This document shows, piece by piece, positions 12,365 to 27,113 of a stretch of DNA of 64,000 nucleotides. Under the pieces are notes generated by a model. The model had not been told where the DNA came from. It did not search any database and was given only the letters and a program-made list of their open reading frames with translations. The position numbers were made by a program, and so were the translations under genes. Source of the stretch: Planctomycetota bacterium (GTDB lineage Bacteria > Planctomycetota > GCA-002687715 > CAIWVZ01); contig JBGANV010000010.1 of NCBI GenBank assembly GCA_044222185.1, positions 136,554-200,553 of the forward strand. Reading direction: 5' to 3'. How positions within the stretch are numbered: the first letter of the stretch is position 1; every line of letters begins with the position of its first letter.

Positions 12365-15300
12365 TTATTTCGAATTTCCGCCCTCCGGACCGTCCTTGAC
12401 CGTGAATCGGAACGACGACGTCGTCCCGGAGATGGCGGGGGCGTACATCGCTTCGCCCCGACCCGGCCGGGCCTTGAGCGTCCCGGGGAGTTCGGCCCGC
12501 AGGCGGTACTTCAGCGTGTGGGTCCCCTGCTGGAGCCACGTCACGAAGAAGGCCGTCTTCGCATCGCGGAACTCCACGTTCGAACAGATGCCTGCGCCGT
12601 ACTGCGGGCCGGATCTGACCTCGAGCGCCTCGAAGCCGGCTGGTTTCAGGTCCTCGAAGAGCAGGTAGTCGTAGTCGTTCTTGGCGTCGATCTTGAACCA
12701 GACCTCGATGACGTCACCCGAGGCTACGGTTGCGCCGTTGGCGAGCGGCTCGAAGCTCTCCTGCGTCGTGACGACCGTCCGTCCGTTCTCCGACCTCTCG
12801 ACGGCCTTCGACGTCACTCTCACGTACGCACGTTCGACGAGCAGGTCCTCGCCAGCGGCGGCGATGTCCGCCTCCTTCGTGAAGAACGTGGCATCGGCCG
12901 AGACGTAGATCCGTCCCTTGCCGTGCGTGCGCACGGTCAGCGTGGCATCCCCGGTCGACAACTCACCGGCACCGAAGGACAGGGTGTTCTGGAATGTGAG
13001 CAGGTTCTCGCGTCCAACGTGAACCGTGTGCGTCCCTCCGCCCTTCAGCGACACGGTGACGTCGAGGTCGGGCTCGAGCTGCCCCGAGGCACGAGCGTAA
13101 CGCACGAGCGCTTCCACGGCCTGCGCCGTGTCACGCGTGTTGAGCCATTGGCCGCCACGTCGATTCGTCACGAGCCATTTCACGAGCGGCTCCACCAACT
13201 CGTGCTTGGGGTCCACGTCGACGAACGCGTTCAGGACGGCGGCGTTCGTCTCCACGAGGTTGTTCCACCACCACCACCAGTCGCGGCTCTCGGATTGCCA
13301 GTGCGCGGTGCCGCCGTCGCGATCGACCTTGGCGAAGTCGGCGAGATTCGAGAGCACCAGTCGCGCGTGTTCGGTGTCCTTGGCGGAAGCGAAGGCGCTC
13401 GCGAGCAGCGCCTTGCCGTAGGGGGTCAGGTCATCCCGGTTGGTGTAGATCCGCGCGAGCAGCGCCGCGTCCGCATGCCGCGCCTTCGCGAGCGCGTACG
13501 CGATGTAGGTTGCCACCACGAGCTTTTGCTCCTTGGGGGCCTGCGCGGCGAGGAACGCCACCGCGCGGTCGATCATCCCCGCGGGAACGGGGAGGTCGGC
13601 CTCTCCCGCAGCGACGAGCCCGCAAAGGACGTACGCCGTGAGGTAGGACGACGACTGGTCTGCGCGCCACCAGCCGAACCCTCCGTCACCGTTCTGCATG
13701 GAGGCAAGCCGCGCCAGTCCATCACGCACGGCCGAGTCGAGTGCGGCTTGAGTGACGATCGGCTTGTGATCCGTGGCGCGGTCACGCATGCCTCGCGTCT
13801 GCCGGGCCTTTGCCACTTCGTCGAGCGTCGTCCCCAGCTCACCCAGCACCCGCGACACGGCGACGGCAGGCATGAAGCGGCTCATGGTCTGCTCGGTGCA
13901 GCCGTAGGGGTAGTCGATCAGGTAGGGGAGGGCGTCGAGGAGCGTCAGCGCGAGGCTCGGGTTCAGCGTGACGTCGAGCCGCGTCGTCTCCTGATGCCGC
14001 TCGGAAGGGATCGTGAAGGTGAGCGCCTGCTCGGCGTCGCCGCTGAGCACGGCGTTCCGGGGGATGCGCTTGTCGTGGCCCCATTCGATTGCGGTGAACT
14101 CCTTCACCATGGCGTCGCTGTCGTTCAGGCCCAGCGCGGTCACGGTGATCTTCGTCCGGCCGGGCTTCTGGACGCCGACGAGCCAGTCGATGCGACGCGC
14201 CTCGCCGGGCGGGACGTCCGTCGCCTGCTCCAGCGCGGATTGTGTCGTCAGCACCTGGCCGTCGAGTTCGATCCGAACGCGAGCCGCCTGCCCGACCGCG
14301 GTGCGATTGTTCACGAGCGCTGTCACGGTGATCTGATCGCCCTCGACGAAGAAGCGAGGTGCGCGGAGGCGGACCAGGAGATCCTTCGTCGTCTTCGTGT
14401 CCGCGGTGATCTCGCCGACCCTGGTGTCGGCCGTCCACGCCCAGACCTTCGCGCGCCAGGTCGTGAGCGACTCGGGGAACGGCACCTTGACGACGGCGCG
14501 GCCGGTCTCGTCCGTCGTCACGTCGGCGGTCCAGAGTGCGGAGTCTCGGAAATCGCTGCGGACCTTGGGCGCCGGCCCCGCCTGGCCGGGCTCGCGGGCG
14601 TTCGAGTCGTCTTCGGAAGAGTCCTGATCCTTCAGCTCGCGGTTGAAATGGTCCGCCTTCTCCTCCGCGCGCGCCGCGCTCGTGGGGGCGGGCGCCGCGG
14701 CCAGGCCGACGGCGGTCGCCTTGTCATCGCCGGCGAACGAGCCCCGGCCACCGCCTCGGTCGCCCTTTTCGCCCGCTGGGCGCCCATCGCGGAGGCGGCC
14801 GCGGATGTGTTCGAACTCGAGTGCGCCGAAACCGACGCCTTCGAGCACGCGGGACGCGATCCCCGGCATGTTCGACCACGCCGGCAGCGCGCCGATGACG
14901 TCGTACCGGCCCCATGCGACGTTCCTCACGAGCTCTCCGTCGAAGGCCGAGCGCGCGGACGAGTTACGCGCGACATCATGCCCGCGGCGCGATCCCCAGA
15001 AGAACCGGCGGATGTCCGGCGTAGTGTCCGATTGGATCTCGAGGATCGACGCGTCGAGCACGGTCACTGCTGCGCGCGCCGACACGGGGTTGCCAGCGTC
15101 ATCCCGAGTCGTGACGACGAGGTCGCCGGATGCCCCCGGCCGATAGTCGGGCCGATCGAACGTCGCCGTCACGTTCAGGAACTGCTCGACGGGCGGCACG
15201 AAGATCTCCACCTCGTCCTCGAAGTACTCGCCCCCACGTACCGAGGCGACGTGCACGTGGAAGTTCGGGACGTGCGTGCGCTCGATGGGGATTTCGATCA

Positions 15301-18292
15301 CTGCGAGCTTCCCGTCGAGCTTGACGACGTCGCACTTCAGCATTCGGCGCCCGCCATCCATCGACAGAAGAAGCGTGCCGTCGGCGAAGTTCGACGTGAC
15401 GAGAACCAGGGCCTTCTCGCCGACCTTGAACGTCCGGCGATTGGGAATCAGCTCCACATTCTTCATGGCGAAGTCACGGGCACCGAAGCCCGGCTTGTGG
15501 ACCCACAGTCGGCTCTCCCCGGTGACGAGCTGCTCGAAGCGATCGAGCGCTTCGAAGGCGATCGCGAAGTTTCCGGGCGCGTCGGCCACCCAACGGAAGA
15601 AGGCGCGGCCTTCGTCGTCCGTCTTGACGGCCGTCTCGTGGACTACCGTCCGGGCCTCGTTGAGACCGCCCTTTTCGTCGAGTGATGCGTCGATGCGGTA
15701 GACCCGCACCTTGCCCTCCACGGCGACGGGCGTTCCCGCGGGCAGGCGGCTGTGGATCTCGCACTCGACGTTCTCGCCCGCGAGATAGAAGTTCTGTTTC
15801 GGTGTGACGTCGAGAGAAAGCGCGCGCTTCGTCACCAGCAGCGACCCGGACCCGTCCAGCGTCCGGCGCGACTCGTCGGTGACTTGCGCTTCGATCAGGA
15901 AGCGCGATCCGTCGCCGGGGTTCGCGGCTTCCGTCCCCGTTTCGAATCCGATCGGCAGCTTGCCGCTTCCATCGAGGACTCCAGATCCCGAAGCCACGAG
16001 TTCGCGTCCCGACTGTTCATGTCGGGGGCGGATCCAGGCGTCGGACCCAAACAGGTAGTCGTATTCACCGCGGCGACCGAACCATGGCCACCACCCCGTG
16101 CGGAACACCTTCCACTCGACGCGCCCGCCCGCGACGGCACCACCGAAGAAGTACTGGGCTTCGACGGTCGCGTTGACGCGCGTCCCGAATCGCACCTGCT
16201 CGGTGGGCAGGCCGACCGTCACTTTGAACTCGGGTTTGAGGTACTCCTCGACCCGGAAATGGCCCTGCGCCACGTACTCGTTGCCGCGTTGGACCTGCAC
16301 CACGTAGACGCCGAGCGGTGGCTCCTTGCCGAGGACCAACTCCTGCTTGAACGCGCCGGATTCATCCGTCCGGAGCTCCTGCTCCATCACATGCTGCCCG
16401 TTGGGGGCGTGCACGCTGACCTTGAAGCGCGTGTCTGCGATCGCCGTGTATTCGTTCCCGTGGCGAGTGCGGATGATCGACGCGAACCGGATCGGATCCT
16501 CGGGCCGATACACCGGCCGGTCCGTCATGACGTACGCCGTCGTCGTGTCCGCGGCTTCGTTCTGCCGGTAGGCGTAGTTCCGGTGAGTGAACGCGCAGCG
16601 CTCGCCATCGGCGGCGAACACCTCGATCTGGAACGACTCCCCGGGACCGACGGAATGTGCGCGCTCGAAGATCCCGCGCTCGTCCGTAGTGCCCTTCGAG
16701 TACCGGACCTTCCATCCGCTGCCAAAGAGTCCACGGCTGTAGTACCGCTCGCGCACCGCCACGTCGGCGCCGCGGAGCGGGGAACCGGTGACCCGGTCGA
16801 CGACGAACACGATCGTCCGGTCGTTGTCCTGCTTCGTGATGATCCCGACGTCGGAAACCTGGACGAGCGTGTTCCACTGAAGCCCCTCGCCGCGCGCCTC
16901 GAGCACGTAGCAGCCCGCGGGCAATCCTGCGATCGCAAGGGCGGTCTCGCGATCGACGTGACGCCCGTCGTCGCGTGTATCCGCAGTCAGCGTGACCGCT
17001 GGGGTCGTGGCCTCGAAGCCGGAAGGGAGCCCCTTGATCACTCCTGACGTGGTGCCAAGCCAAAGGTCGTCATCCGACAGGAAACCGTCCGAGAGGTAGA
17101 TCGACGGCAACTTCACGGGTCGGAGCGTGACGGCAATCGCCTTCATGTTGCGCGAGTGCGCCGTGAGCTCGAACGGCTTTCCGGGGAGCCTTGGCTCGCC
17201 GGCTGCAATCGAGAGCCGCGGGAACGTGATCTGCTCGATGGCCGACTTCGCATCTCCGATCCACGGCGACTTGGGGAAGTCGGCGACGAGCTTGCGGTAC
17301 GACGCCACCGCATCGACGAGGAGGCCGAGCGTCTCCTGGGCCTTCGCGAGGCTGACGAGGATCTCGTCGCCGAGCGCGGACGTCGCGCAGCGCGCGAACG
17401 CCTCCGATAGGACCTTCACCGGGTTGCGATCCGCGGGGACCGCGACCGTCGGCTTGTCGCCGCCGAGCGGCGCGACGAGAATTTCATCGGCAGAGCGGAC
17501 GTCGCGCGCGGTGGACCGCGTGAACATGCGCAGGCACGCGGCGCCTTTCATGTATCGCGCGAGTGCTTCCCCGTCCTGGTTGGCGACGGCGACCTGGTGA
17601 CTGATGGCTCCATCGAACGCGCCGACGATGCGATCGTTCCAAGCGGTTTCGAGTTTCTGATCCTGCTGGACATCGCCGCTGACGTTGAAGGCGAGTCCGT
17701 GGTCCCGGAACGCCTCGAGGACGGAACCCAGCTCGAGGTGAGCGCGGAGGTGCTCGGCCGAGAGCCCCTTGTCCGTGGCATTCGGAGTCGGAGTGGCATT
17801 CGCGACCTGCGCGGCGAAGATCGCAGTCGAGGCCTCCAGATCCGTACGAGCGAGGGTCATGTCGTCCGTGACCGCCCACACGTAGGTGCCACCCTGGATG
17901 TAGGTTCCCCGCGAGCGCTGCCCGTCCTTCTCGTAGAAATAGTGCGGCATCGTCGCCGCGATCACGCCCCGCTCGAGCCGCGCGCGGGCCTCGGCGAGAG
18001 GTGCCGGCCGCTGCTCGACGAATGCCTTCAGGTGCGCGATTGCCTCGTCGAACTTCGAAAGGCGCGCGAGACAGACCCCGATGCGGACCTCGACCCGGGG
18101 GCGTTCCGCGGCGAACTGCGAATCCTTCGCCGCGCTCCGGTAGTTCTCGAGCGCCTTCTGGTACTCGTGGTCGCTGAAGGCCTTGTCCGCGACCTTCAAA
18201 GGATCGTCCCTGCGGTCGAAGTGCTGGTGTGCTGCCGTGAGAAGTCCGAGAACGGACGCCAGGACGGCGCCGACGACGAGTTTGCCGAGCAT
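12365..18292 (-). CDS. Bacterial alpha-2-macroglobulin with N-terminal TPR-like region
   Basis: TDRPVYRP (MG2), VEEYLKPEF, VRSDFRDSALW, FPESLTTW, APRFFVEGD, thioester motif YPYGCTEQ (13889-13900), QNGDGGFGWW, EAMYAP. Confidence 0.93.
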   Translation of the reverse strand: MLGKLVVGAVLASVLGLLTAAHQHFDRRDDPLKVADKAFSDHEYQKALENYRSAAKDSQFAAERPRVEVRIGVCLARLSKFDEAIAHLKAFVEQRPAPLAEARARLERGVIAATMPHYFYEKDGQRSRGTYIQGGTYVWAVTDDMTLARTDLEASTAIFAAQVANATPTPNATDKGLSAEHLRAHLELGSVLEAFRDHGLAFNVSGDVQQDQKLETAWNDRIVGAFDGAISHQVAVANQDGEALARYMKGAACLRMFTRSTARDVRSADEILVAPLGGDKPTVAVPADRNPVKVLSEAFARCATSALGDEILVSLAKAQETLGLLVDAVASYRKLVADFPKSPWIGDAKSAIEQITFPRLSIAAGEPRLPGKPFELTAHSRNMKAIAVTLRPVKLPSIYLSDGFLSDDDLWLGTTSGVIKGLPSGFEATTPAVTLTADTRDDGRHVDRETALAIAGLPAGCYVLEARGEGLQWNTLVQVSDVGIITKQDNDRTIVFVVDRVTGSPLRGADVAVRERYYSRGLFGSGWKVRYSKGTTDERGIFERAHSVGPGESFQIEVFAADGERCAFTHRNYAYRQNEAADTTTAYVMTDRPVYRPEDPIRFASIIRTRHGNEYTAIADTRFKVSVHAPNGQHVMEQELRTDESGAFKQELVLGKEPPLGVYVVQVQRGNEYVAQGHFRVEEYLKPEFKVTVGLPTEQVRFGTRVNATVEAQYFFGGAVAGGRVEWKVFRTGWWPWFGRRGEYDYLFGSDAWIRPRHEQSGRELVASGSGVLDGSGKLPIGFETGTEAANPGDGSRFLIEAQVTDESRRTLDGSGSLLVTKRALSLDVTPKQNFYLAGENVECEIHSRLPAGTPVAVEGKVRVYRIDASLDEKGGLNEARTVVHETAVKTDDEGRAFFRWVADAPGNFAIAFEALDRFEQLVTGESRLWVHKPGFGARDFAMKNVELIPNRRTFKVGEKALVLVTSNFADGTLLLSMDGGRRMLKCDVVKLDGKLAVIEIPIERTHVPNFHVHVASVRGGEYFEDEVEIFVPPVEQFLNVTATFDRPDYRPGASGDLVVTTRDDAGNPVSARAAVTVLDASILEIQSDTTPDIRRFFWGSRRGHDVARNSSARSAFDGELVRNVAWGRYDVIGALPAWSNMPGIASRVLEGVGFGALEFEHIRGRLRDGRPAGEKGDRGGGRGSFAGDDKATAVGLAAAPAPTSAARAEEKADHFNRELKDQDSSEDDSNAREPGQAGPAPKVRSDFRDSALWTADVTTDETGRAVVKVPFPESLTTWRAKVWAWTADTRVGEITADTKTTKDLLVRLRAPRFFVEGDQITVTALVNNRTAVGQAARVRIELDGQVLTTQSALEQATDVPPGEARRIDWLVGVQKPGRTKITVTALGLNDSDAMVKEFTAIEWGHDKRIPRNAVLSGDAEQALTFTIPSERHQETTRLDVTLNPSLALTLLDALPYLIDYPYGCTEQTMSRFMPAVAVSRVLGELGTTLDEVAKARQTRGMRDRATDHKPIVTQAALDSAVRDGLARLASMQNGDGGFGWWRADQSSSYLTAYVLCGLVAAGEADLPVPAGMIDRAVAFLAAQAPKEQKLVVATYIAYALAKARHADAALLARIYTNRDDLTPYGKALLASAFASAKDTEHARLVLSNLADFAKVDRDGGTAHWQSESRDWWWWWNNLVETNAAVLNAFVDVDPKHELVEPLVKWLVTNRRGGQWLNTRDTAQAVEALVRYARASGQLEPDLDVTVSLKGGGTHTVHVGRENLLTFQNTLSFGAGELSTGDATLTVRTHGKGRIYVSADATFFTKEADIAAAGEDLLVERAYVRVTSKAVERSENGRTVVTTQESFEPLANGATVASGDVIEVWFKIDAKNDYDYLLFEDLKPAGFEALEVRSGPQYGAGICSNVEFRDAKTAFFVTWLQQGTHTLKYRLRAELPGTLKARPGRGEAMYAPAISGTTSSFRFTVKDGPEGGNSK

Positions 18293-18809: not shown

Positions 18810-18916
18810 GGCGCCATCTCTCCTGTGACGTGTTCCAGCGGTCGATTGGGGGGCGCTGCTCTACGCCACGAAGCGTGCGCGTCGCAAGCATCCGGCGTCG
18901 CGCCCCTGAACTTCAA

Positions 18917-18944
18917 TTGCCGCATCGCCGACGCCTGGTAGAAT
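18917..18944 (+). promoter_or_regulatory. Putative sigma70 promoter of the BMC operon
   Basis: TTGCCG-N16-TAGAAT with extended -10 TGn, about 40 nt before the ALDH start. Confidence 0.55.
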
Positions 18945-18985
18945 CCGGGCCGTTTCCCGAGCCCCAGCCGCCATGCGGCATCTCC

Positions 18986-20608
18986 ATGATGGATCAGGAC
19001 TTAGCCTCAATCGCCGAGGCTCGCGCGCTGCTTCGGCGCACCCGCCAGGCATTCAACCAGTACCGGTCGTTCGACCAGGCTCGGGTCGACCGCATCGTCT
19101 ACGCGGCGGTCGAAGCCGGCTATCGGGCGTCTGAACGCCTCGCGCAGGTCGCCGTCGAGGAGACGGGCATCGGCCGTGTCGACGGCAAGACGGCGAAGAA
19201 CCGCTTCGCGACGCGAGGACTCTGGGCCGCGATCCGCGAACTCCGAACCTGCGGAATCCTGAACGAGGATTCCGAGCGAGGCGTCACCGAGGTGGCAGAC
19301 CCGTTCGGGATCGTCGCCGCGATCATCCCCACGACGAACCCCACGTCGACCGCGATGTTCAAGGCTCTCATCTGCCTGAAGTCGCGTAATGGAATGGTGG
19401 CCTCGCCACACCCGCGGTCCGTTCGGTGCGTGAACGAATCCGTTCGCGTGATTCACGAGGCCGCCGTCGAGGCAGGCGCGCCCCGCGACATCGTCGCGTG
19501 CATGACGAACGTCAGTCTCGAGGGAACCCAGGCGCTCATGCGCCACGAAGAGACCGACCTCATCCTCGCCACGGGTGGCTCGGGGCTCGTACGGGAAGCC
19601 TATTCGTCCGGCAAGCCGGCGTTCGGCGTGGGCCCCGGGAACGTGCCCGTCTACGTGGACCGTTCCGCCGACATCGCCTATTCGGCGCGCTGCTTCGTCG
19701 AGAGTCAGACGTTCGACAACGGCACGATCTGTTCTTCCGAGCAGGCGATCGTGTGCGACCGGCCCGTGAGCGACCGGCTCCTGGCAGAGCTTCGCGCACG
19801 AAAGTGTCACGTCTGCACTCCTGAAGAGGTCAAGCGGCTCGAAGCCATCGCGTTGAAGGGCAAGACGATGAACCCCGACATCGTGGGTCTTCACGCGAAC
19901 AAGGTCGCGGAAAAGGCCGGGTTCACCGTGCCCGGCGACACGACGGTGCTGATCGCCCCGACGTCCGGCGTCGGCTTCGCCCATCCGCTCTCACACGAGA
20001 AGCTCTGCCCCATGCTGGCCTTCTACGTCGTGGATGGTTGGGAGCAGGGCTGCCACCTCTGCCTGGACATCCTGGGATTCGGCGGATTGGGACACTCGAT
20101 CGGCCTTCACTGCGAGGACGAGTCGATCATCCGGCGGTTTGCCCTGGAGAAGCCCGTCAACCGCATCATTCTGAACAGCCCCACGTCGCAGGGCGCCGTC
20201 GGGTTCACGACGCGACTGTTCCCGTCCATGACGCTCGGATGCGGGTCCTTCGGGGGCAACATCACGTCGGACAACATCGGCCCTCAGCACCTCTTGAACA
20301 TCAAGCGGCTGGCGCGCGTTCGTCCCGAGTATCGCGACGGAACGATGACCGCCGAGTTCCCGCACCTGCCTCCGACTGGCGCGGCGGACCCCGTGACGAG
20401 TCCCTGGGACCCCGCCGATCGATTGGTCTCGCGGCCGGAGCCCGACCCCGCCGCGCCTCCCCGGCCGGCCCTCGCGAATCCGGCTCGCCCCTTTTCGCGC
20501 GACGTGCTTGCGGGCATCATTTCCGGACATTTGCGGGAGCGGGGGAGTCAGTTGGAGGGACGGGTCGATGGTCGTGATCCGCCCCGAAAGGGTCACGGCG
20601 GATGTTGA
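18986..20608 (+). CDS. Acylating aldehyde dehydrogenase (EutE/PduP/AdhE-N type) with C-terminal encapsulation-peptide-like extension
   Basis: IIPTTNPTST, ILATGG, GVGPGNVP, FDNGTICSSEQ (catalytic Cys), HEKLCP, SMTLGCGSFGGNITSDN; Pro-rich linker then helix FSRDVLAGIISGHLRER. Confidence 0.93.
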   Translation: MMDQDLASIAEARALLRRTRQAFNQYRSFDQARVDRIVYAAVEAGYRASERLAQVAVEETGIGRVDGKTAKNRFATRGLWAAIRELRTCGILNEDSERGVTEVADPFGIVAAIIPTTNPTSTAMFKALICLKSRNGMVASPHPRSVRCVNESVRVIHEAAVEAGAPRDIVACMTNVSLEGTQALMRHEETDLILATGGSGLVREAYSSGKPAFGVGPGNVPVYVDRSADIAYSARCFVESQTFDNGTICSSEQAIVCDRPVSDRLLAELRARKCHVCTPEEVKRLEAIALKGKTMNPDIVGLHANKVAEKAGFTVPGDTTVLIAPTSGVGFAHPLSHEKLCPMLAFYVVDGWEQGCHLCLDILGFGGLGHSIGLHCEDESIIRRFALEKPVNRIILNSPTSQGAVGFTTRLFPSMTLGCGSFGGNITSDNIGPQHLLNIKRLARVRPEYRDGTMTAEFPHLPPTGAADPVTSPWDPADRLVSRPEPDPAAPPRPALANPARPFSRDVLAGIISGHLRERGSQLEGRVDGRDPPRKGHGGC

Positions 20609-20651: not shown

Positions 20652-20945
20652 ATGAGCATGATTGCGCTTGGCATGGTCGAGACCCGCGGTCTCGTGGGTG
20701 CCGTCGAAGCCGCGGACGCCATGGTGAAGGCCGCCCAGGTCACGCTGATCGGCAAGGAGAAGATCGGTGGCGGTTTCGTCACGGTGATGGTTCGCGGCGA
20801 GGTCGGAGCCGTGAAGGCGGCGACCGATGCGGGCGCAGCTGCCGCGAAGCGTGTCGGCGAGCTCGTTTCGGTCCACGTCATTCCCCGTCCGCACGACCAG
20901 GTCGAATCGATCCTTCCGTCCGCGCCGGCCCGCGACGAAGGCTGA
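20652..20945 (+). CDS. Microcompartment shell hexamer BMC-H (EutM/PduA-like)
   Basis: [24 protein letters not shown]...[15 protein letters not shown]...VHVIPRPH. Confidence 0.97.
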
Positions 20946-20989: not shown

Positions 20990-21616
20990 ATGGCCGACAT
21001 CGAACTCCGCACGTTCGTCTTCCTCGACAGCATGCAGCCGCAGTTCGCGTCGTTCGTAGGCACGACGTCGCGTGGCTATCTGCCGGTCGAATATCAAGCT
21101 GCCTTGTTCGTCGAGATCGCCCCCGGCATCGCGATCAACAAGGTGACTGACGTCGCACTGAAGAAGAACGACGTGCAGCCCGGCGTCCAGGTCGTCGAGC
21201 GGGCCTATGGTCTGCTCGAGGTCCACGCCGACAGTCAAGCCGAGGTCATCTCGGCCGGCGAGAACATCCTCCAATCGCTTGGACTCAAGCGCGAGGATCG
21301 TTTGAAGCCCAAGGTGATGTCGTCGCAGATCATCACCAACATCGATCCTTACCAGGCGCAGCTCATCAACCGCATTCGCTTCGGCAACATGATCCTCGGA
21401 GGGGACACGCTGTACATCCTCGAGGTTCATCCCGCTGGATACGCGACGGTGGCTGCGAACGAAGCCGAGAAGGCTTCACCCATCAGCCTCATCGAGATGC
21501 AGATGTTCGGCGCCTACGGCCGCCTGTATCTCGGGGGGACCGAGGCTGAGATCGAGGAGGCGGCAGCCGCCGTCCTCCACGCCCTCGATTCGATCGACGG
21601 GCGTCCCAACAAGTGA
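20990..21616 (+). CDS. Shell trimer BMC-T, stacked double-layer type (CcmP / Haliangium BMC-T2-like)
   Basis: ELRTFVFLDSMQPQFA, EIAPGIAIN, QVVERAYGLLEVH, RLKPKV, PAGYATVAANEAEKA, GAYGRLYL. Confidence 0.92.
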   Translation: MADIELRTFVFLDSMQPQFASFVGTTSRGYLPVEYQAALFVEIAPGIAINKVTDVALKKNDVQPGVQVVERAYGLLEVHADSQAEVISAGENILQSLGLKREDRLKPKVMSSQIITNIDPYQAQLINRIRFGNMILGGDTLYILEVHPAGYATVAANEAEKASPISLIEMQMFGAYGRLYLGGTEAEIEEAAAAVLHALDSIDGRPNK

Positions 21617-21628
21617 AGGGACGAGAAC

Positions 21629-23152
21629 GTGTTTGTCGGAACAGTCAGATGTGAGATCGAAGTCGGAAAGGCCTCCCAGGCGTTCCGCGGCTTCCGGCTC
21701 CTCCTCGTGGAGCCCGAGCACAAGGTCGATTGGGATGGACCCGTGGTCGCGGTTGATACGGTGCAGGCCAACGTCGGCGACATGGTCGTCGTCGCGCTCG
21801 CACCATTCGGCACGGGCCTCAACATCCCCGCGGATCTTCCGGTCGAGGCCGCGACGGTCGCGATCGTGAAGTCACTGTCGGGTACGCCGGCCGCTGCGCC
21901 GGCCCAGCGTCACGGCACGCCTCCGCCCGCGGCGCCCGCCCGTTCGCCGGACGGACCGCCGCGTCCGGAGCGCGCACCGGACGCGCCCCGGGGTGAGCGC
22001 GAGCCCGCGTTGCCGAGCCACATTCGGGACCTGATGGAAACCGCTCGGCCCGCCGCGCCACGCGATGCGGACGAGGGCGGTGCGCGGTTCGCCGACGAGG
22101 GACCGGGTGGTCCCCGTCGTCGCCGCCGCCGTCGCGGAGGTCGTGGGGGTCGCGGCCACGAGGACGGGTTCGAAGGCGGGCCCGAGTCCGAGGGCCAGGA
22201 CGACGTGGCGTTCGCCGAGCCCGCCGACGAGCCGCGGAGCGGCGACGTACGCGAGCCCGTGGATGCACCGCCGGCCGCATTGCCGCCGCGCGACGATCGC
22301 GGTCACGGTCGTCGTGACGACCGCAGGCCACGCGATGATCGCGGCCCTCGCGAAGACCGTCCGATGCGCGACGATCGCGGCCCGCGTGAAGATCGCCCCA
22401 TGCGTGAGGATCGCCCGGCACGCGACGAACGCCCCATGCGTGACGAACGCCCCATGCGTGACGAACGCCCCATGCGTGACGAACGCCCCATGCGTGACGA
22501 ACGCCCCCCGCGTGACGAACGCCCCCCGCGTGACGAACGCCCCGCGCGTGAGGAACGCCCCGCGCGTGAGGAACGCCCCGCGCGTGAGGAACGCCCCGCG
22601 CGTGAGGAACGCCCCGCGCGTGAGGAGCGCGGCCCGCGCGACGATCGCCCCATGCGGGACGACCGTCCAGCGCGCGACGACCGTCATCAAAGGGACGATC
22701 GCACGCGGGATGAACCCCGTGGTCCGCGCGAGGATCGCCCGCAACGCGACGAGCGCGGACCTCGAGAAGACCGGGGCCCGCGCGGCGAGGATCGGCCCCG
22801 CCGTGACGACGGTCACCGCCATCACGGCGGACAAGATCGCGGCCCCCATGGCGAACCCCGTCCGCCCCGCGAGCCTCGCGAGCCGCTGCGCCCCGAGCGT
22901 CGCGAGCCGGCGTCGCCGGTGAGCGAGGCGAAGGCCATCGAGGGTTTCGACGCGCCCGCCGAACGCAAGCCAGCTCGCCAGGAGCCGTCGGGCGATCGTG
23001 GTGCGCGCCGGCCTGCGGGCGAGTCTTCCGCCGTGGTGTGGGACGCGTCGCCCGGTCCCGTCGGCGGCTTCGAGATCGCCGAGGACGTCGCGCTGACGTC
23101 GACCTCCGGCATCAAACGCCCCGTGAAGCGTCGCGGAGGCCTGCGTAAGTGA
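21629..23152 (+). CDS. Divergent BMC-P (EutN/CcmL) vertex protein fused to a ~420-aa low-complexity tail
   Basis: First ~85 aa follow the EutN pattern (MFVGTV...FRLLLVEP...VVAVDTVQANVGDMVVV...PVEAATVAIV). The rest is R/D/E/P/G-rich. Lies between two BMC-T genes. Confidence 0.8.
   Translation: MFVGTVRCEIEVGKASQAFRGFRLLLVEPEHKVDWDGPVVAVDTVQANVGDMVVVALAPFGTGLNIPADLPVEAATVAIVKSLSGTPAAAPAQRHGTPPPAAPARSPDGPPRPERAPDAPRGEREPALPSHIRDLMETARPAAPRDADEGGARFADEGPGGPRRRRRRRGGRGGRGHEDGFEGGPESEGQDDVAFAEPADEPRSGDVREPVDAPPAALPPRDDRGHGRRDDRRPRDDRGPREDRPMRDDRGPREDRPMREDRPARDERPMRDERPMRDERPMRDERPMRDERPPRDERPPRDERPAREERPAREERPAREERPAREERPAREERGPRDDRPMRDDRPARDDRHQRDDRTRDEPRGPREDRPQRDERGPREDRGPRGEDRPRRDDGHRHHGGQDRGPHGEPRPPREPREPLRPERREPASPVSEAKAIEGFDAPAERKPARQEPSGDRGARRPAGESSAVVWDASPGPVGGFEIAEDVALTSTSGIKRPVKRRGGLRK
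22421..22654 (+). repeat. In-frame 18-bp tandem repeat (R[DE]ERP[MPA]), 11 near-perfect units plus degenerate flanking units
   Basis: cgtgacgaacgccccatg / ...ccg / cgtgaggaacgccccgcg units. Degenerate units extend over about 22310-22810. Confidence 0.95.
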
Positions 23153-23751
23153 GATCGGCGACGGGCAGCGGATCGAGCCCACTCGGCGCCGTCGAGTGGG
23201 ACAGCGTGGCGCGCGGGATCCAATCCGCCGATGCCCTGCTGAAGGCCGCGCCCGTCACGCCCCTTCTCATGCGACCGATCACGCCTGGGCGCTACCTGGC
23301 GCTCTTCACCGGCGAGGTCGAGGCCGTGCGTGCGTCCGTGGCGCGCGCCCTCGAGACCGGTGGCGAAAGCGTGATCGACCACCTCGTCCTGCCGAATCCG
23401 CACTCCGGGTTGTGGCTCGCGCTCGGTGCCCGCGGGCAGGATGGCGCGTTGTCGGCCGTCGGCGTGATCGAAACGCTCACGGTCTGCTCGCTGATCCTCG
23501 CCGCCGACACCGCGGCGAAGACCGGCGAGGTTCGCCTCCATGAAATCCGCCTCGCCATGGGCCTGGGCGGCAAGGCCTTCGTCGTGCTCACCGGCGAGGT
23601 CTCCAACGTCGAGGCGGCCGTTCAGCGCGGGGCCGACCTCGCGCGAGCGCGAGGATTCCTGTTGAGCTCGGTCGTGATTCCCAATCCGGATCCCACGACC
23701 GTCGACTTCCTGTCTCGGCCGCCGTCACCCTTCCGTGACTTCGTGGTCTGA
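23149..23751 (+). CDS. Shell trimer BMC-T, single-layer type (PduT / Haliangium BMC-T1-like)
   Basis: LGAVEWDSVARGIQSADALLKAA...PGRYL...AVGVIET...AADTAAK...IRLAMGLGGKAFVVLTGEVSNVEAAV...VIPNP. Confidence 0.92.
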   Translation: MRSATGSGSSPLGAVEWDSVARGIQSADALLKAAPVTPLLMRPITPGRYLALFTGEVEAVRASVARALETGGESVIDHLVLPNPHSGLWLALGARGQDGALSAVGVIETLTVCSLILAADTAAKTGEVRLHEIRLAMGLGGKAFVVLTGEVSNVEAAVQRGADLARARGFLLSSVVIPNPDPTTVDFLSRPPSPFRDFVV

Positions 23752-23785
23752 GCCAAACGAAACCACCATCGCAGAGGGTCAACGC

Positions 23786-24082
23786 ATGCCGCGCGGCTTC
23801 GACATCTTCAAGAAACCCGAGACGCCGAAGGAAGTGCCCGAGTCGGCTCCGAAGGAGACCTACTCCTGGTTCGGGCCGCCCGACACGACGGAACGGTTCC
23901 GATTCGCGATCGTTCGCGAGTCAGGCGACCAGGTCTCCCTGCAACCGGGGATGGTCAAGTTCAAGAAGGGCCTGACCTGCCTCCGCTGGAGCGCGGCCGA
24001 GGCCGGCGAGTCCGAGCTCTACATGGTCTTGAAGACGACGCCGACGCGCATCGACCTCCAGCGCGCGAAGAAGAAGGCCTGA
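23786..24082 (+). CDS. Hypothetical protein at the end of the BMC operon
   Basis: GAGG then ATG at 23786; typical codon usage; no family recognised. Confidence 0.75.
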   Translation: MPRGFDIFKKPETPKEVPESAPKETYSWFGPPDTTERFRFAIVRESGDQVSLQPGMVKFKKGLTCLRWSAAEAGESELYMVLKTTPTRIDLQRAKKKA

Positions 24083-24116: not shown

Positions 24117-24542
24117 TCAGAGCGCCGCCCGCACCTGGTCGTAGCTCTTTCCGTCGCGTGCGATCGGCAGATCGCACTGCGCCCAGCCCTTGGCCACGCC
24201 GAAGGGGCCGCGCATTCCGTTGAAGCCACCGGCGACGTTCGACAGGTCCGTGAAACCCTCGGCGGCGAGGATGGTGCACGCCTGCCGGCTCCGTCCGCCG
24301 GACGCGCAACCCACGACGAGCTTCTGCGCCTTCGCGAACACTCGCGTGATGACCGGCACGAAATCCGGATTGGGGGCCATCCGCCCCATGGCGTCGAACT
24401 CGGCCAGGGGGACGTTGACGGCTCGCGGTGGGTGTCCCTGGGCGAATTCCGCCGAGCTGCGGACATCCAGGTAGATGGCGGTCGGATCGTCGGTGAGCAG
24501 CGCGTGCGCCTCCGGCGGCGTCAGGTCCTTCGGTGCTTGCAT
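24117..24542 (-). CDS. Single-domain rhodanese-like protein
   Basis: YLDVRSSAEFAQGHP..AVNVP, active loop GCASGGRS, NVAGGF. Confidence 0.9.
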   Translation of the reverse strand: MQAPKDLTPPEAHALLTDDPTAIYLDVRSSAEFAQGHPPRAVNVPLAEFDAMGRMAPNPDFVPVITRVFAKAQKLVVGCASGGRSRQACTILAAEGFTDLSNVAGGFNGMRGPFGVAKGWAQCDLPIARDGKSYDQVRAAL

Positions 24543-24720
24543 GGTCGCGAATCCTTGGGAGGCCGGATGATACGCGCACGTACCCAGGATCACAGCGCGG
24601 CGTTGGCGCGGGCTGCGTCCGGCGGTGCTGCGGTAGAGTCGCTGACTCCCAAGGATTTGCGACACGGGACGTGGAACTCGGGAACGCACGTGCGGAACCC
24701 GCGTCCAAGGAGCCGTCAGA

Positions 24721-25326
24721 GTGTCTTCTTCTGAGCCGAAAACCGACTGGCAACTGATCAAACGGGTCGTCGATGACGGTGATCTCACCGCCTTCGACGC
24801 ACTGGTCGATCGTTACCAGGACCGGATCTTCGGTGTGATCTCGAGGCTCGTCTCCGACGTGGAGCGAGGGCGGGATCTCACGCAGGAGACATTCCTCAAG
24901 GCATTCAGAGGTTTGCGGGGCTTCACGGGAGACGCTGCCTTCTATACCTGGCTCTATCGCATCGCTCGGAACGTCGTCACCTCGGCCGGCCGATACGATC
25001 GTGCTCGCCCGGTGGTGGCCGTCTCCCTGGATGCGCCCACATCGAGCGGACGTGAAGACAGCGCCCGGATCGACCCGCCCGCGACCGGAGGCGACCCGGT
25101 GGAGAGACTGCTCGAAGACGAACGACGCGCGATGGTCCTGGCGGCCGTGGCCGAACTCCAGCTCGACTTTCGCGAGGTGCTGGTCCTGCGTGACTTCGAA
25201 GACCGCTCATACGAGGAGATCGCCGAGCTGCTCGAGATCCCGGTGGGGACCGTGCGCTCGAGGCTCCACCGCGCACGCGCCGACCTGAAGGAGCGACTGC
25301 GTCCGCTGCTTGCAAACCCACGATGA
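24721..25326 (+). CDS. ECF sigma factor (RpoE/SigW-like)
   Basis: AFDALVDRYQ, DLTQETFLKA, FYTWLYRIARN, SYEEIAELLEIPVGTVRSRLHRAR. Confidence 0.93.
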   Translation: MSSSEPKTDWQLIKRVVDDGDLTAFDALVDRYQDRIFGVISRLVSDVERGRDLTQETFLKAFRGLRGFTGDAAFYTWLYRIARNVVTSAGRYDRARPVVAVSLDAPTSSGREDSARIDPPATGGDPVERLLEDERRAMVLAAVAELQLDFREVLVLRDFEDRSYEEIAELLEIPVGTVRSRLHRARADLKERLRPLLANPR

Positions 25327-27113
25327 CGTTCATGACACACGACTGCACAAGAATTCGCGAGTGCTTGCAAGACGCGCTCGACGACCGCCTCGACCGCGAA
25401 GCGCGCGCCGACTTCGAGCGGCACGTCGCACATTGCGTCGGGTGTGCGAGCGAGTGGGATGGGTTCCGCTCCATGCGTGCCACCATGCGCGCGCTCGGCC
25501 TGCCGAAAGCGCCCGCGGGTCTGCGCGAATCGATCGCGTCCGCCGTGCGAGCGGAGATCTCGGGTGATCTACCGCGACCCCGGCAGTCGGCGAAAGTCCA
25601 CCGATTCCTTCAGTGGTCGCGTCACTTCGCGGTCGCAGCGTCGGTGATCCTCGTCGTCACACTCGGTTGGATCGCCGTCGAGCAGCGTCGGCAGGAGGCG
25701 ACGGGTCCGGCTGCGACGAGCGAAGGGCTGGCGGTCGCCGAGAAGTCTGTCGCCCCAATCGACAAGTCGAAAGCAAGGAGCCTCGAGGCCAAGCCAGACG
25801 AGGAATTGCGTAAGGCACCCGCGAAACCGAGCGCGCCGGTGGTCGATGCCGGACCGGCCGCAACACCGACCGCTCAGCCGAAACGAGGCGAGCCCGAGGG
25901 CGAAGCAGTCCTGGTACTCAAGAATCCGAATGGCTCGGGCGTGGAGGACCGCCTCGGCGCAAAGGACAAGTCGGCGGCCGGCGACACTTCCTCCGGTGAG
26001 TTCAACGCTCCTGCGGCGGAAGGCGCCGCACCGCCGGCCCAGGTCCTCTCCGGACGCGACCCGTGGAGGGACGTGTCGGGGGGCGATCTTCCGAATCTGG
26101 CGGGTCTCCATTTCGACCGAAAAGAAGATGCGTCGGTCGCGATGTTCCTCACGAGCCTGGACCTGAACGTGCACGAGTTCGCCGTCCAGGTCCCGCTCAA
26201 CGTTCAGACGACGGTCGACGCGTTCACGGTCGACCTGGACGAAGCGCTCGACCACCTGAGCGATCACGTCTCCGCCGCCGCGCCCGCGGAGCGCGCGAAG
26301 ACTCGGGGCTCGACTTCCGGCCCTGGCGGCGAAGTCGTGCGCCGCAGCCCGGCGGAGCCCCGCAGTGCCCCGGGCGTGGGCGGACCCGAGGGCAAGTCGC
26401 CGTCGAAGGGAGACAAAGGCGTCGGCTCTCCGCGTGGCCTCGCACCCGGCGCTGCAGCGCCGGGTGGTGGCGGCGGCACCGCCAAGTCCAATCCGTCTCC
26501 GTCGCGCGGCGGCCGTGCGTCCCCGCAGGCGGGTGGCGCGAGGAACGAGCCGCAGCCGGACCCCAAGCCTGATGCGGATCGGTCCGTCGTCACGGCTGGC
26601 CTGGCTCCGAGCCGCGACGACGGCATGACGCCGGGCCCCGAGATTGCGCCGGCGTTCTACCTCGTCACGGGCGCTCAGGCGATCGCCAAGGTCGGCCGCC
26701 TCCTCGAGCGGAACGGCTTCCGCGCTCGCGAGATCCAACTCCGAACGATCGACGGTGGGGCACCGTCTGCCGAGTCGAGAATGAAGAAGTCGAGCGAGGT
26801 CGGATTCCAGGTCGTGCGTGCGGCCGATGCGGCGGGGTTGGCGCCCGGGAAGAAGTACCGCGTGGTCGAGCTCGATCTACAGCGGTCGCAGGTGAATCCG
26901 TTCATCGGGGACCTGGAATCCGTTGAAGGGATCCGCCTCGCGCCCGTGGGACGTCGTGTCGACCCCGCCGCGCCGACGGACCCGGAGCCCACCGACGCTC
27001 GCCGCGCTGCTCCGGATGCGGCGCGCCACGCGAAGGCCGACGATCCTGAACGCACCGCCACTCAGGCGACACCCGCCACGACGACGCTTCGGCTGGTCAT
27101 TCTCGAGCCCTGA
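25323..27113 (+). CDS. Zinc-binding (ZAS/zf-HC2) membrane anti-sigma factor with long low-complexity extracytoplasmic part
   Basis: HDC...HVAHCVGC (HxxxCxxC), one TM helix, ATGA-coupled to the sigma gene. Confidence 0.85.
   Translation: MTFMTHDCTRIRECLQDALDDRLDREARADFERHVAHCVGCASEWDGFRSMRATMRALGLPKAPAGLRESIASAVRAEISGDLPRPRQSAKVHRFLQWSRHFAVAASVILVVTLGWIAVEQRRQEATGPAATSEGLAVAEKSVAPIDKSKARSLEAKPDEELRKAPAKPSAPVVDAGPAATPTAQPKRGEPEGEAVLVLKNPNGSGVEDRLGAKDKSAAGDTSSGEFNAPAAEGAAPPAQVLSGRDPWRDVSGGDLPNLAGLHFDRKEDASVAMFLTSLDLNVHEFAVQVPLNVQTTVDAFTVDLDEALDHLSDHVSAAAPAERAKTRGSTSGPGGEVVRRSPAEPRSAPGVGGPEGKSPSKGDKGVGSPRGLAPGAAAPGGGGGTAKSNPSPSRGGRASPQAGGARNEPQPDPKPDADRSVVTAGLAPSRDDGMTPGPEIAPAFYLVTGAQAIAKVGRLLERNGFRAREIQLRTIDGGAPSAESRMKKSSEVGFQVVRAADAAGLAPGKKYRVVELDLQRSQVNPFIGDLESVEGIRLAPVGRRVDPAAPTDPEPTDARRAAPDAARHAKADDPERTATQATPATTTLRLVILEP

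Follow-up and report, generated by a model that had tools for sequence, protein, structure and literature searches.

A bacterial microcompartment vertex-type protein with a long, disordered C-terminal tail encoded in a Planctomycetota shell operon

We analysed a 64,000-nucleotide stretch of the genome of a Planctomycetota bacterium (assembly GCA_044222185.1, contig JBGANV010000010.1, positions 136,554 to 200,553; hereafter the window, in whose numbering positions are given), which encodes a shell protein of the bacterial microcompartment (BMC) vertex type, BMC-P, fused to a tail of about 420 residues. The gene is an uninterrupted frame of 507 codons on the plus strand (21629..23152) that begins with a GTG. 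A Shine-Dalgarno-like AGGGA, read from the sequence, lies 7 nt before this start (21617..21621, plus strand) and directly after the stop codon of the preceding BMC-T shell gene (21614-21616), and all orthologs of the tailed BMC-P begin at an equivalent MF(V/I)G. At the other end, stop and start codons share bases: the sequence GTGA (23149-23152) contains both the GTG with which the next shell gene begins and the stop of this one; judged by this overlap, the tailed BMC-P appears to be translationally coupled to that gene.

A preliminary description of this DNA, made from the sequence alone, had read the first ~85 residues as an EutN/CcmL-like domain, and several methods agree with that reading. 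Residues 1-85 (21629..21883, plus strand) contain a match to PF03319 (EutN_CcmL) over residues 6-80 that, at 28.1 bits against a cut-off of 25 (E 3e-06), passes by a small margin; a whole-genome scan scores the same site at 32.1 bits, and intermediate relatives bridge the domain to canonical BMC-P forms. Compared alone with Protein Data Bank (PDB) sequences, the domain finds a Haliangium shell pentamer as its best match at E 0.02, but a profile that includes canonical relatives reaches that pentamer at E 5.4e-22, and the domain is therefore divergent. AlphaFold2 applied to a 25-sequence domain alignment (A2), which includes canonical BMC-Ps and thus calls for caution about the fold, gave a five-stranded model with a predicted local distance difference test score (pLDDT) of 90.5 and a predicted template modelling score of 0.78. 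When this model was compared with the PDB using Foldseek, the listed matches down to rank 46 were all BMC-P chains (GrpN, CcmL, EutN, the Haliangium protein HO BMC-P and CsoS4), with template modelling scores of about 0.6-0.8; the first unrelated fold came at rank 48 with E 0.055. Residues 1-85 are thus predicted to adopt the BMC-P fold in a divergent form.

Examination of alignment A2 shows where this divergence lies. The canonical paralogs carry D.VGAG.GE and G(S/R)xAR, whereas the tailed clade has DTV.A.VGD and APFG or APLG, with a pore loop about 5 residues shorter than the canonical one. In this protein the two sites read DTVQANVGD and a shortened APFGT, so the non-canonical motifs noted in the preliminary description are real. 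The GAG.GE motif has a role at the pentamer-hexamer interface. A GS motif in the pore loop is described as typical of BMC-P in the relevant passage of PMC6971018. The N-terminal columns of both alignments also contain residues that are invariant in the tailed clade and absent from canonical BMC-Ps (C8, E9 and H31), and a His at position 16 is found in every member of the clade except this protein, which has a Ser there; these clade-specific residues may form a metal or redox site.

The remaining 419 residues are predicted to be disordered. In a full-length AlphaFold2 model built on an alignment of 12 full-length members (A1), 394 of the 507 residues have pLDDT below 50, which together with the PF03319 match bears out the proposed fusion of a BMC-P domain to a long disordered tail; because mean pLDDT in this model is 45.4, and 27-53 in the N-terminal domain, it was left out of the fold search. 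The Pro-rich linker, Arg/Gly patch, acidic stretch, hexapeptides and VVWD...GGFEI end that had been listed for the tail are all found in the translation, in the following order on the plus strand. A Pro/Ala-rich linker (aa 86-161, 21884..22111) encloses the only tail element that AlphaFold2 predicts as helical, SHIRDLMET (aa 130-138, 22016-22042), where the surrounding 10-residue blocks average pLDDT 61 and 70. This helix is kept only in the closest family (f1 of the four families of relatives, f1 to f4, considered below), and its counterparts are EHVRAIIDI in relatives P0004 and L011 and RHIRSLMEE in P0021. The linker is followed by a basic Arg/Gly patch, PRRRRRRRGGRGGRG (aa 162-176, R7GGRGGRG, 22112..22156), whose net charge of +9 in 15 residues is the maximum of the tail, and by an acidic patch (aa 177-202, 22157..22234) that reaches -7 in 15 residues. 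Next comes a spacer of R[DE][DE]RP-type hexapeptides with alternating charges (aa 220-396, 22286..22816), and the protein ends with a Trp-acidic motif region, SSAVVWDAS...GGFEIAEDV (aa 466-487, 23024..23089), and a basic C-terminus, KRPVKRRGGLRK (aa 496-507, 23114..23152 including the stop), with a net charge of +7 over the last 15 residues.

The core of the spacer is an 18-bp tandem array at 22383-22656, which encodes the 26 R[DE][DE]R units of the tail and in which Tandem Repeats Finder counts 15.2 copies with 88% matches and also detects periods of 36 and 54 bp. Composition of the 419-residue tail is dominated by Arg (98), Pro (69), Asp (50), Glu (50) and Gly (42), with 5 Lys; charged residues make up a fraction of 0.48, and per residue the net charge is +0.007. 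In windows of 6 residues, the squared net charge averages 1.65 over the tail, compared with 2.85 +/- 0.34 in 500 shuffles, and 0.06 over the repeat part, compared with 3.84 +/- 0.76 in shuffles. Because windowed charge is lower than in shuffled sequences, the tail is a net-neutral polyampholyte whose charges are evenly interspersed and which contains two basic patches, both local. The preliminary description had likened it to the blocky-charge tails of RNase E and Rho, and for the repeats this is wrong: their charges alternate and cancel.

To place the tail in an evolutionary context, we searched 41 related genomes with the BMC-P domain. Matches at E <= 1e-3 were found in 22 of them, including 4 of 4 genomes in f1, 6 of 8 in f3 and 6 of 9 in f2. 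Of the orthologous loci, the closest 10 include 3 that run into a contig end; the 7 complete ones all continue in frame for 145-267 residues past the domain and finish with the same end motif, and none of the ten has a stop near codon 90. A search of 1.84 billion representative proteins with the domain returned 20 matches at E <= 1e-3, 14 of them at E <= 1e-10. The 14 relatives at E <= 1e-18 comprise 10 full-length proteins (203-355 aa) with both tail and motif and 4 short ones (67, 85, 102 and 130 aa), of which the 102-aa sequence is a contig-end fragment. The architecture is thus a conserved one.

What is conserved within the tail is a small part of it that the preliminary description overlooked. 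Only four tail columns are invariant in A1, namely V470, W471, R501 and R502, and they belong to a motif with the approximate consensus DDGGF[DG][IV]VW[DE], followed after 10-30 residues by a K.[KR].PRRRR C-terminus; the terminus of this protein carries RR rather than RRR. The Trp-acidic motif is seen in every complete ortholog, several members have a second copy of it, and the residue after W471 is Asp or Glu. The Trp lies 37 residues from the C-terminus here, 20-34 in the other basic-ended members and 11 in f2. Elsewhere the tail keeps its character and not its letters: across 20 family members the charged fraction is 0.37-0.55 and the absolute net charge per residue at most 0.13, while tail length ranges over 92-419 aa and the repeats vary, being Lys-based (KKAA-type) in some and GNEQRP-type in others. 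The last 15 residues have a net charge of +5 to +8 in 18 of the 20, the two exceptions being f2 forms that end acidic and carry an internal K-rich patch of +9 instead; a basic free end is therefore not universal. An internal basic patch of at least +6 is present in 13 of the 20.

Substitution patterns point in the same direction. Ratios of nonsynonymous to synonymous substitution rates (dN/dS), calculated by the Nei-Gojobori method for three ortholog pairs, were 0.15, 0.21 and 0.30 in the tail and 0.06, 0.09 and 0.05 in the domain; the values are rough, having been obtained from protein-guided alignments with synonymous sites near saturation. On this comparison the tail is under purifying selection, with coding constraint in this frame.

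The families differ in domain and tail. The f2 version of the gene, a fourth BMC-P paralog, retains the canonical motifs and has a tail of 92-110 aa composed of a K-rich patch, an acidic stretch and an end of the form ...DDVDxIWGDD...; the domain of the f1 and f3 versions has decayed, scoring 26-40 bits, and their tail has lengthened. At the scale of the phylum, 16 of 401 sampled genomes contain a match at E <= 1e-8, in f1, f3, f2 and 4 genomes of another family; the proteins of those four stop at about 97 aa, and the long tail is therefore confined to one order among those searched. Taken together, the alignments indicate that the tail is conserved as an architecture within one Planctomycetota order while its sequence and length vary.

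The terminal motif was sought beyond this gene as well. Within 45,997 frames of at least 80 aa in the genome, it occurred in this one and in a single frame of low third-position GC that we take to be non-coding. The C-terminal 54 residues of P0013, compared with a set of 5.8 billion proteins, recovered only P0013 itself among 5 candidates, in a word-based and thus weak search. Long BMC-P forms of other kinds, sought in the same set as longer relatives of a canonical paralog, amounted to 11 proteins and were set aside. Six have a second Pfam domain, and the five with PF03319 only (P0029, P0031, P0032, P0033 and P0036), judged by eye, look like read-through or frame errors: nonsense rich in Arg and Cys, or strings of BMC-P genes read as one. 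Apart from P0026, with six, each of the 11 has one member sequence only.

Because the tail is encoded by GC-rich repeats, it might be asked whether the frame is open by chance or through misassembly, with a real product that is a BMC-P of ~90 aa. Two further long frames do lie across the same DNA (minus strand, 436 aa; plus strand, 285 aa), third-position GC in the repeat part is only 0.66, and one interval is not bridged by short-read contigs. However, long overlapping frames are expected in repetitive DNA of 68-72% GC, and the translations of both are low-complexity strings. The C-terminal motif is kept in frame across several genera, dN/dS in the tail is at or below 0.30, the 18-bp repeat unit preserves the frame, and the following gene's start is coupled to the stop. 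We therefore regard an artefact as extremely unlikely, and the frame at 21629-23152 is almost certainly a genuine gene for a BMC-P with a fused intrinsically disordered region (IDR).

Read support across 21880-23150, which the preliminary description had singled out for checking, is found in the flanks and incomplete between them. In X1, the likely source run, one short-read contig ends at 22453 and the next begins at 22597, both inside the 18-bp array. Contigs of run X2, from an independent study, show 3 differences over 21600-22288 and are identical to 22680-22915 and 23022-23200, and those of run X5 cover 22644-23010 with 1 difference. Among the Logan short contigs, those of X1 do not span the interval 22453-22597 and those of X2 and X5 leave it without coverage; since no contig bridges it, the number of repeats lacks independent support; a miscount of an 18-bp unit, however, cannot shift the frame. 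The short-read contigs of all four runs break or vanish in the array, where copy number rests on the assembler alone. Two apparent joints, 21851>22293 (X2, side 23) and 22085>22998 (X1, side 24), were disregarded for their short sides and their position within repeats. Habitat labels of runs that contribute small shares were likewise set aside.

The tailed gene lies within a shell operon. Its first gene encodes an aldehyde dehydrogenase (18830..20608, plus strand; PF00171, 77.4 bits) that is syntenic in relatives, followed on the same strand by a BMC-H hexamer protein (20652..20945; PF00936, 100.8 bits) that is 86-93% identical in most relatives and by a BMC-T of the double-stacking CsoS1D/CcmP/HO-5816 type (20990..21616; phmmer against the PDB, 5v76 at E 3.7e-76). 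This BMC-T scores 22.4 in Pfam against a cut-off of 24.5, yet matches Haliangium (HO) BMC-T structures at E 1e-73 to 1e-76; annotation by hidden Markov models only would miss it because its score falls below the gathering cut-off. Downstream of the tailed BMC-P comes a tandem-domain, PduT-like BMC-T (23149..23751, plus strand; PF00936, 139.1 bits over two stretches; 3nwg at E 2.7e-46), so the tailed protein is flanked by genes for BMC-H, double-stacking BMC-T and tandem BMC-T. All four PF00936 matches in the 7.08-Mb genome fall in this operon, and the gene order is kept in more than 20 fetched loci from families f1 to f4.

The organelle that this shell would enclose can be recognized from a second locus. 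On another contig, C1, at 1519000-1538900 (L029), we found a BMC-P gene, an RpiB gene, two more BMC-P genes, a DeoC aldolase gene and a PNP-family nucleoside phosphorylase gene. The three BMC-Ps (1529655-1531366) are canonical, at 102, 88 and 76 bits. RpiB has its PF02502 domain at aa 143-280 of 283, after a 142-aa N-terminal extension, and DeoC its PF01791 domain at aa 77-281 of 286, after a 76-aa extension; genes for a bifunctional-nuclease domain and an L,D-transpeptidase stand beside these enzymes. No BMC-H is present at C1:1519000-1538900, and the organelle is therefore encoded in two distant loci. The sugar-phosphate-utilisation (SPU) type of microcompartment is defined, in passages of PMC8217296 and PMC11585597, by DeoC and RpiB with N-terminal extensions, an aldehyde dehydrogenase and a BMC-P triplet, all of which this genome has. 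By gene content, then, the tailed BMC-P operon is the shell half of a split SPU-type metabolosome. SPU loci usually include a PduL/PTAC enzyme, and no PF06130 match was found in the genome, which is 93.8% complete. PF03319 matches occur in 21 of 23 genomes of the order. Of the 23, 14 have four and no more, made up of a cluster of three and the tailed one; the tailed BMC-P is on these counts a fourth paralog and not a member of the triplet.

Several neighbouring genes complete the picture of the locus. Directly after the tandem BMC-T lies a small conserved gene, orf115 (23735..24082, plus strand), with a likely start at Met codon 18 (~98 aa) and no Pfam match; it is syntenic in f1 and f3, with identities of 40-62%, and the f2 and f4 loci yielded no counterpart. 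We considered it as an obligate partner of the poly-Arg end and rejected this, as the f4 genome G007 encodes a 372-aa poly-Arg-ended protein and no detectable orf115. Farther downstream are genes for an extracytoplasmic function (ECF) sigma factor (24721-25326, plus strand, from Pfam) and a zf-HC2 anti-sigma-like protein (25323-27113, plus strand; 22.1 bits against a Pfam cut-off of 22.2). The position of the sigma factor gene is kept in the loci of all four families, which hints at possible ECF control of the organelle. A rhodanese-domain gene (24117-24788, minus strand) lies between the shell operon and the sigma factor gene, with a similarly placed homolog in L030. Just upstream of the operon is a gene for a 1975-aa bacterial alpha-2-macroglobulin (12365-18292, minus strand) with MG2, bait region, thioester domain and MG10. 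In genome G002 (L031), 1.7 kb separates a homolog of this gene from the tailed BMC-P, and in that interval neither an aldehyde dehydrogenase nor a BMC-H or BMC-T was detected; this arrangement is either a rearrangement or an assembly problem of the metagenome-assembled genome.

What might such a tail do? Its orientation is the first consideration. In the Haliangium shell, a Strep tag on the BMC-P C-terminus pulls down whole shells (PMC10853475 and PMC6056538, in the passages on purification). Because that C-terminal tag is accessible, a tail on the BMC-P C-terminus is expected to be cytoplasmic, and by this analogy the display of five tails at each pentamer, put forward in the preliminary description, still stands as an expectation. 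We consider it likely that the tail is external to the shell.

Building on this, we propose that the tail faces outward and serves mainly as a tether, binding nucleic acid through its basic patches; this is the role we favour, although our confidence in it falls slightly short of even. In this mechanism the BMC-P domain would sit in or on the shell at five-fold positions, and from each pentamer five flexible arms would reach out into the cytoplasm. The alternating repeats of Arg, Asp, Glu and Pro would serve as an expanded, non-sticky spacer whose length drifts through gain and loss of repeats, and function would reside in the invariant Trp-acidic motif and in two basic patches, R7GGRGGRG and, at the terminus, KRPVKRRGGLRK. 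The patches would bind a polyanion, most likely DNA or RNA. Such binding could hold the organelle on nucleic acid or the nucleoid for positioning and inheritance; alternatively, it could keep an organelle that catabolises nucleic-acid sugars near the source of its substrate, as has been proposed for the tails of Hodarchaeales pentamers. The Trp-acidic motif probably docks on a protein surface, much as (V/I)WPD of alpha-McdB docks on carboxysomes. In a more ambitious version, which we hold tentatively and think doubtful as a whole, this order of Planctomycetota would have fused anchoring into the shell itself: a specialised fourth pentamer would bear five long neutral arms, each with a McdB-like Trp-acidic docking motif and a poly-Arg anchor at its end, as a complete tether, independent of ParA, that holds a catabolic microcompartment on the nucleoid or on nucleic-acid substrate. 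If true, this would be the first bacterial vertex to bear an IDR, and it would offer one reason for the retention of several BMC-P paralogs in BMC loci.

A number of observations weigh against this proposal. The outward orientation is transferred from one model shell. Incorporation at the vertex is assumed for a domain that is without the canonical GS motif in its pore loop and has an altered GAG.GE, and whose PF03319 score in f1 and f3 is 26-40 bits, compared with 70-83 bits in the f2 forms. Taken as a whole the tail is net neutral, and its repeats should not bind nucleic acid by charge. In the closest relatives, P0004 and L011, the internal patch reaches at most +3, and only the short terminal patch is general there; the f2 forms lack a basic terminus and finish with a Trp motif that is acidic. 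Two of the short database relatives, P0007 (85 aa) and P0008 (130 aa, with a different helix-like tail), may be natural tail-less or short-tail forms. Finally, a 178-nt contig of an RNA library matches 22685-22859, which is not proof of transcription.

Other roles for an external or internal tail can be weighed against the same evidence. The arms could act as a surface brush, that is, as entropic bristles that space shells or set their size, with the end docking back on tiles of its own shell or of one next to it. This fits the conservation of spacer composition over sequence in 20 of 20 members, the existence of both Arg-based and Lys-based versions and the length range of 92-419 aa; Trp-dependent docking on shell exteriors is known for McdB and CipG from the passages on them cited below, and BMC-H, which could serve as the docking surface, shows 86-93% identity in most relatives. 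However, no docking site is known, the invariant terminal motif is left unexplained by a spacer alone, and basic patches would be needless. When three BMC-H chains were predicted in complex with tail residues 455-507, the score was 0.00 against a mark of 0.32, which speaks neither for nor against docking; a partial hexamer and a short disordered partner lie outside the calibration of the tool. We think a brush unlikely. It is very unlikely, in turn, that the tail points inward as a lumenal scaffold that organises cargo as CsoS2 does in alpha-carboxysomes. CsoS2 is a disordered, repetitive scaffold, and the tail is likewise long, repetitive and disordered, with an amphipathic-looking helix at aa 130-138 that resembles an encapsulation peptide. 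That helix is kept in the closest family only, though, the C-terminus of HO BMC-P is reachable from outside, the cargo enzymes DeoC and RpiB carry N-terminal extensions of their own, and sixty 420-residue arms per shell would be expected to crowd a small lumen.

The likeness to McdB raises a further alternative: a built-in positioning adaptor in which the Trp-acidic motif and the basic end engage a nucleoid-bound ATPase of the ParA/McdA type, with spacing and inheritance of the organelles through a Brownian ratchet. The tail is almost wholly disordered, repetitive and low in hydrophobicity, like alpha-McdB, and its invariant Trp has a [VI]-W-acidic context near the C-terminus that recalls the V(I)WPD of alpha-McdB (PMC8359340 and PMC11321042, passages on the motif). 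The f2 end, ...DDVDxIWGDD..., is much like McdB in lying 11 residues from the C-terminus, some members have two such motifs, and partners of ParA-type ATPases are described as using a charged terminal peptide. Set against this, no ParA-like gene is present in the 64-kb window or in the fetched loci of relatives, and the ParA-like genes of this genome lie far from both BMC loci. An orphan ParA-like gene occurs in 4 of 41 genomes including this one (f1 0/4, f3 1/8) and does not track the tailed protein. Moreover, the Trp motif of McdB attaches the adaptor to the shell, a function that would be redundant in a covalent BMC-P fusion. These facts make an McdB-like adaptor improbable, somewhat more so than a brush, and identity with McdB itself was rejected, because the protein is fused and no McdA lies nearby or co-occurs. 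The orphan ParA-like ATPase of this genome (C1:1073254-1074282; L044 5255-6286, minus strand) has a long C-terminal extension.

The proposed outward tether has implications for several questions. A shell has only 12 pentamers as caps; a conserved paralog whose arm is external would give an extra BMC-P a concrete, testable role. To our knowledge, how catabolic microcompartments are positioned in or connected to the cell is largely unknown outside the carboxysomes. For shell engineering, it provides a natural precedent for attaching very long payloads to the vertex C-terminus. The reason for extra BMC-P paralogs is stated to be unknown in the passages of PMC8217296 and PMC11585597 that treat them.

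The closest known counterpart of the tailed BMC-P is archaeal. In a 2025 bioRxiv preprint (PMC12747264), the passages on Hodarchaeales (Asgard) describe AMC-P2 pentamers of SPU-type compartments with K/R-rich IDRs of 36-137 aa; full-length AMC-P2 and its IDR alone bind DNA and RNA, whereas a truncation without the IDR does not. For tethering to nucleic acid, as put forward in the preliminary description, these experiments on a related kind of organelle are a precedent. The same passages call IDR-fused pentamers "not observed in BMCs". The preliminary description knew of no such BMC architecture, a statement that stands for bacteria, as our full-text literature searches, supplements aside, found no bacterial BMC-P with a long disordered tail, and that fails more generally in view of the archaeal version in this preprint. 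Given that precedent, the tailed BMC-P is not a new category. Like AMC-P2 as described there, it is one paralog among several, combines a PF03319 pentamer domain with a disordered region that contains basic patches, and belongs to an SPU-type compartment with a DeoC aldolase and an aldehyde dehydrogenase. AMC-P2 is archaeal and its DNA and RNA binding has been demonstrated, whereas the tailed BMC-P is bacterial (Planctomycetota) and known here from its sequence. No archaeal-looking relatives were among the 20 domain matches at E <= 1e-3, and the bacterial and archaeal fusions are therefore probably independent. Bacteria, too, thus have IDR-fused pentamers, in the same type of organelle and with a different tail design; this suggests convergence on surface tails in metabolosomes for nucleic-acid sugars, and it bears on the argument, as set out in the preprint's passages (PMC12747264), that IDR-fused pentamers are an archaeal innovation.

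Comparison with bacterial shell proteins shows a similar mixture of likeness and difference. Canonical pentamers (HO BMC-P 5v74, GrpN 4i7a, CcmL 4jvz/4jw0/2qw7 and EutN 2hd3) share the predicted fold with template modelling scores of about 0.7-0.8 and 17-28% identity, belong to the same Pfam family and are likewise encoded among BMC-H and BMC-T genes, but they have about 85-110 aa, compared with 507 aa in this protein, which is without the GS pore-loop motif. In the 'triplet plus one' BMC-P sets described in passages of Sutter et al. 2021 and Dwyer 2024 (PMC11585597), three canonical paralogs are also accompanied by an extra copy; here, by contrast, the extra copy is apart from the triplet, in the shell operon, and tailed. 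BMC-H proteins with C-terminal extensions of up to 200 residues that cluster phylogenetically are reported in the catalog of Sutter et al. 2021 (PMC8217296), and to judge from its passages on them they resemble the tailed BMC-P in joining a tile domain to a long, phylogenetically clustered extension, on a hexamer and not a pentamer. Extended BMC-Ps are not mentioned in the main-text passages of that catalog or of the SPU paper (PMC11585597), supplements aside.

Proteins that dock on carboxysomes from outside offer another comparison. According to the passages on docking in PMC11321042 and PMC8359340, McdB is a disordered, repetitive adaptor that docks on the carboxysome exterior through an invariant C-terminal Trp, with the alpha consensus R(V/I)WPD, and CipG likewise docks on the exterior through Trp residues (PMC13506006, same kind of passage). 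The tailed BMC-P shares with alpha-McdB its near-full disorder, repetitive sequence, low hydrophobicity and an [IV]VW[DE] that resembles R(V/I)WPD, and alpha-McdB associates with the outside of a microcompartment, as we propose for the tailed protein. McdB, however, is a small free protein that, in these accounts, is usually encoded beside McdA, whereas the tailed BMC-P is a covalent shell fusion with no McdA-like neighbour; and the McdB Trp lies in the last few residues, whereas most tailed members have their Trp 20-37 residues before the end, with a poly-Arg terminus after it.

It is thus against AMC-P2 that the tailed BMC-P is best defined. The AMC-P2 IDR described in the preprint is net positive and 36-137 aa long, whereas this tail, at 419 aa, is three to ten times as long and is net neutral and alternating, with basic patches that are only local. 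It also has a conserved terminal motif, Trp-acidic and then basic, that the AMC-P2 passages do not describe. The Planctomycetota protein therefore differs from its archaeal precedent in domain of life, charge design, length and the presence of a conserved terminal motif.

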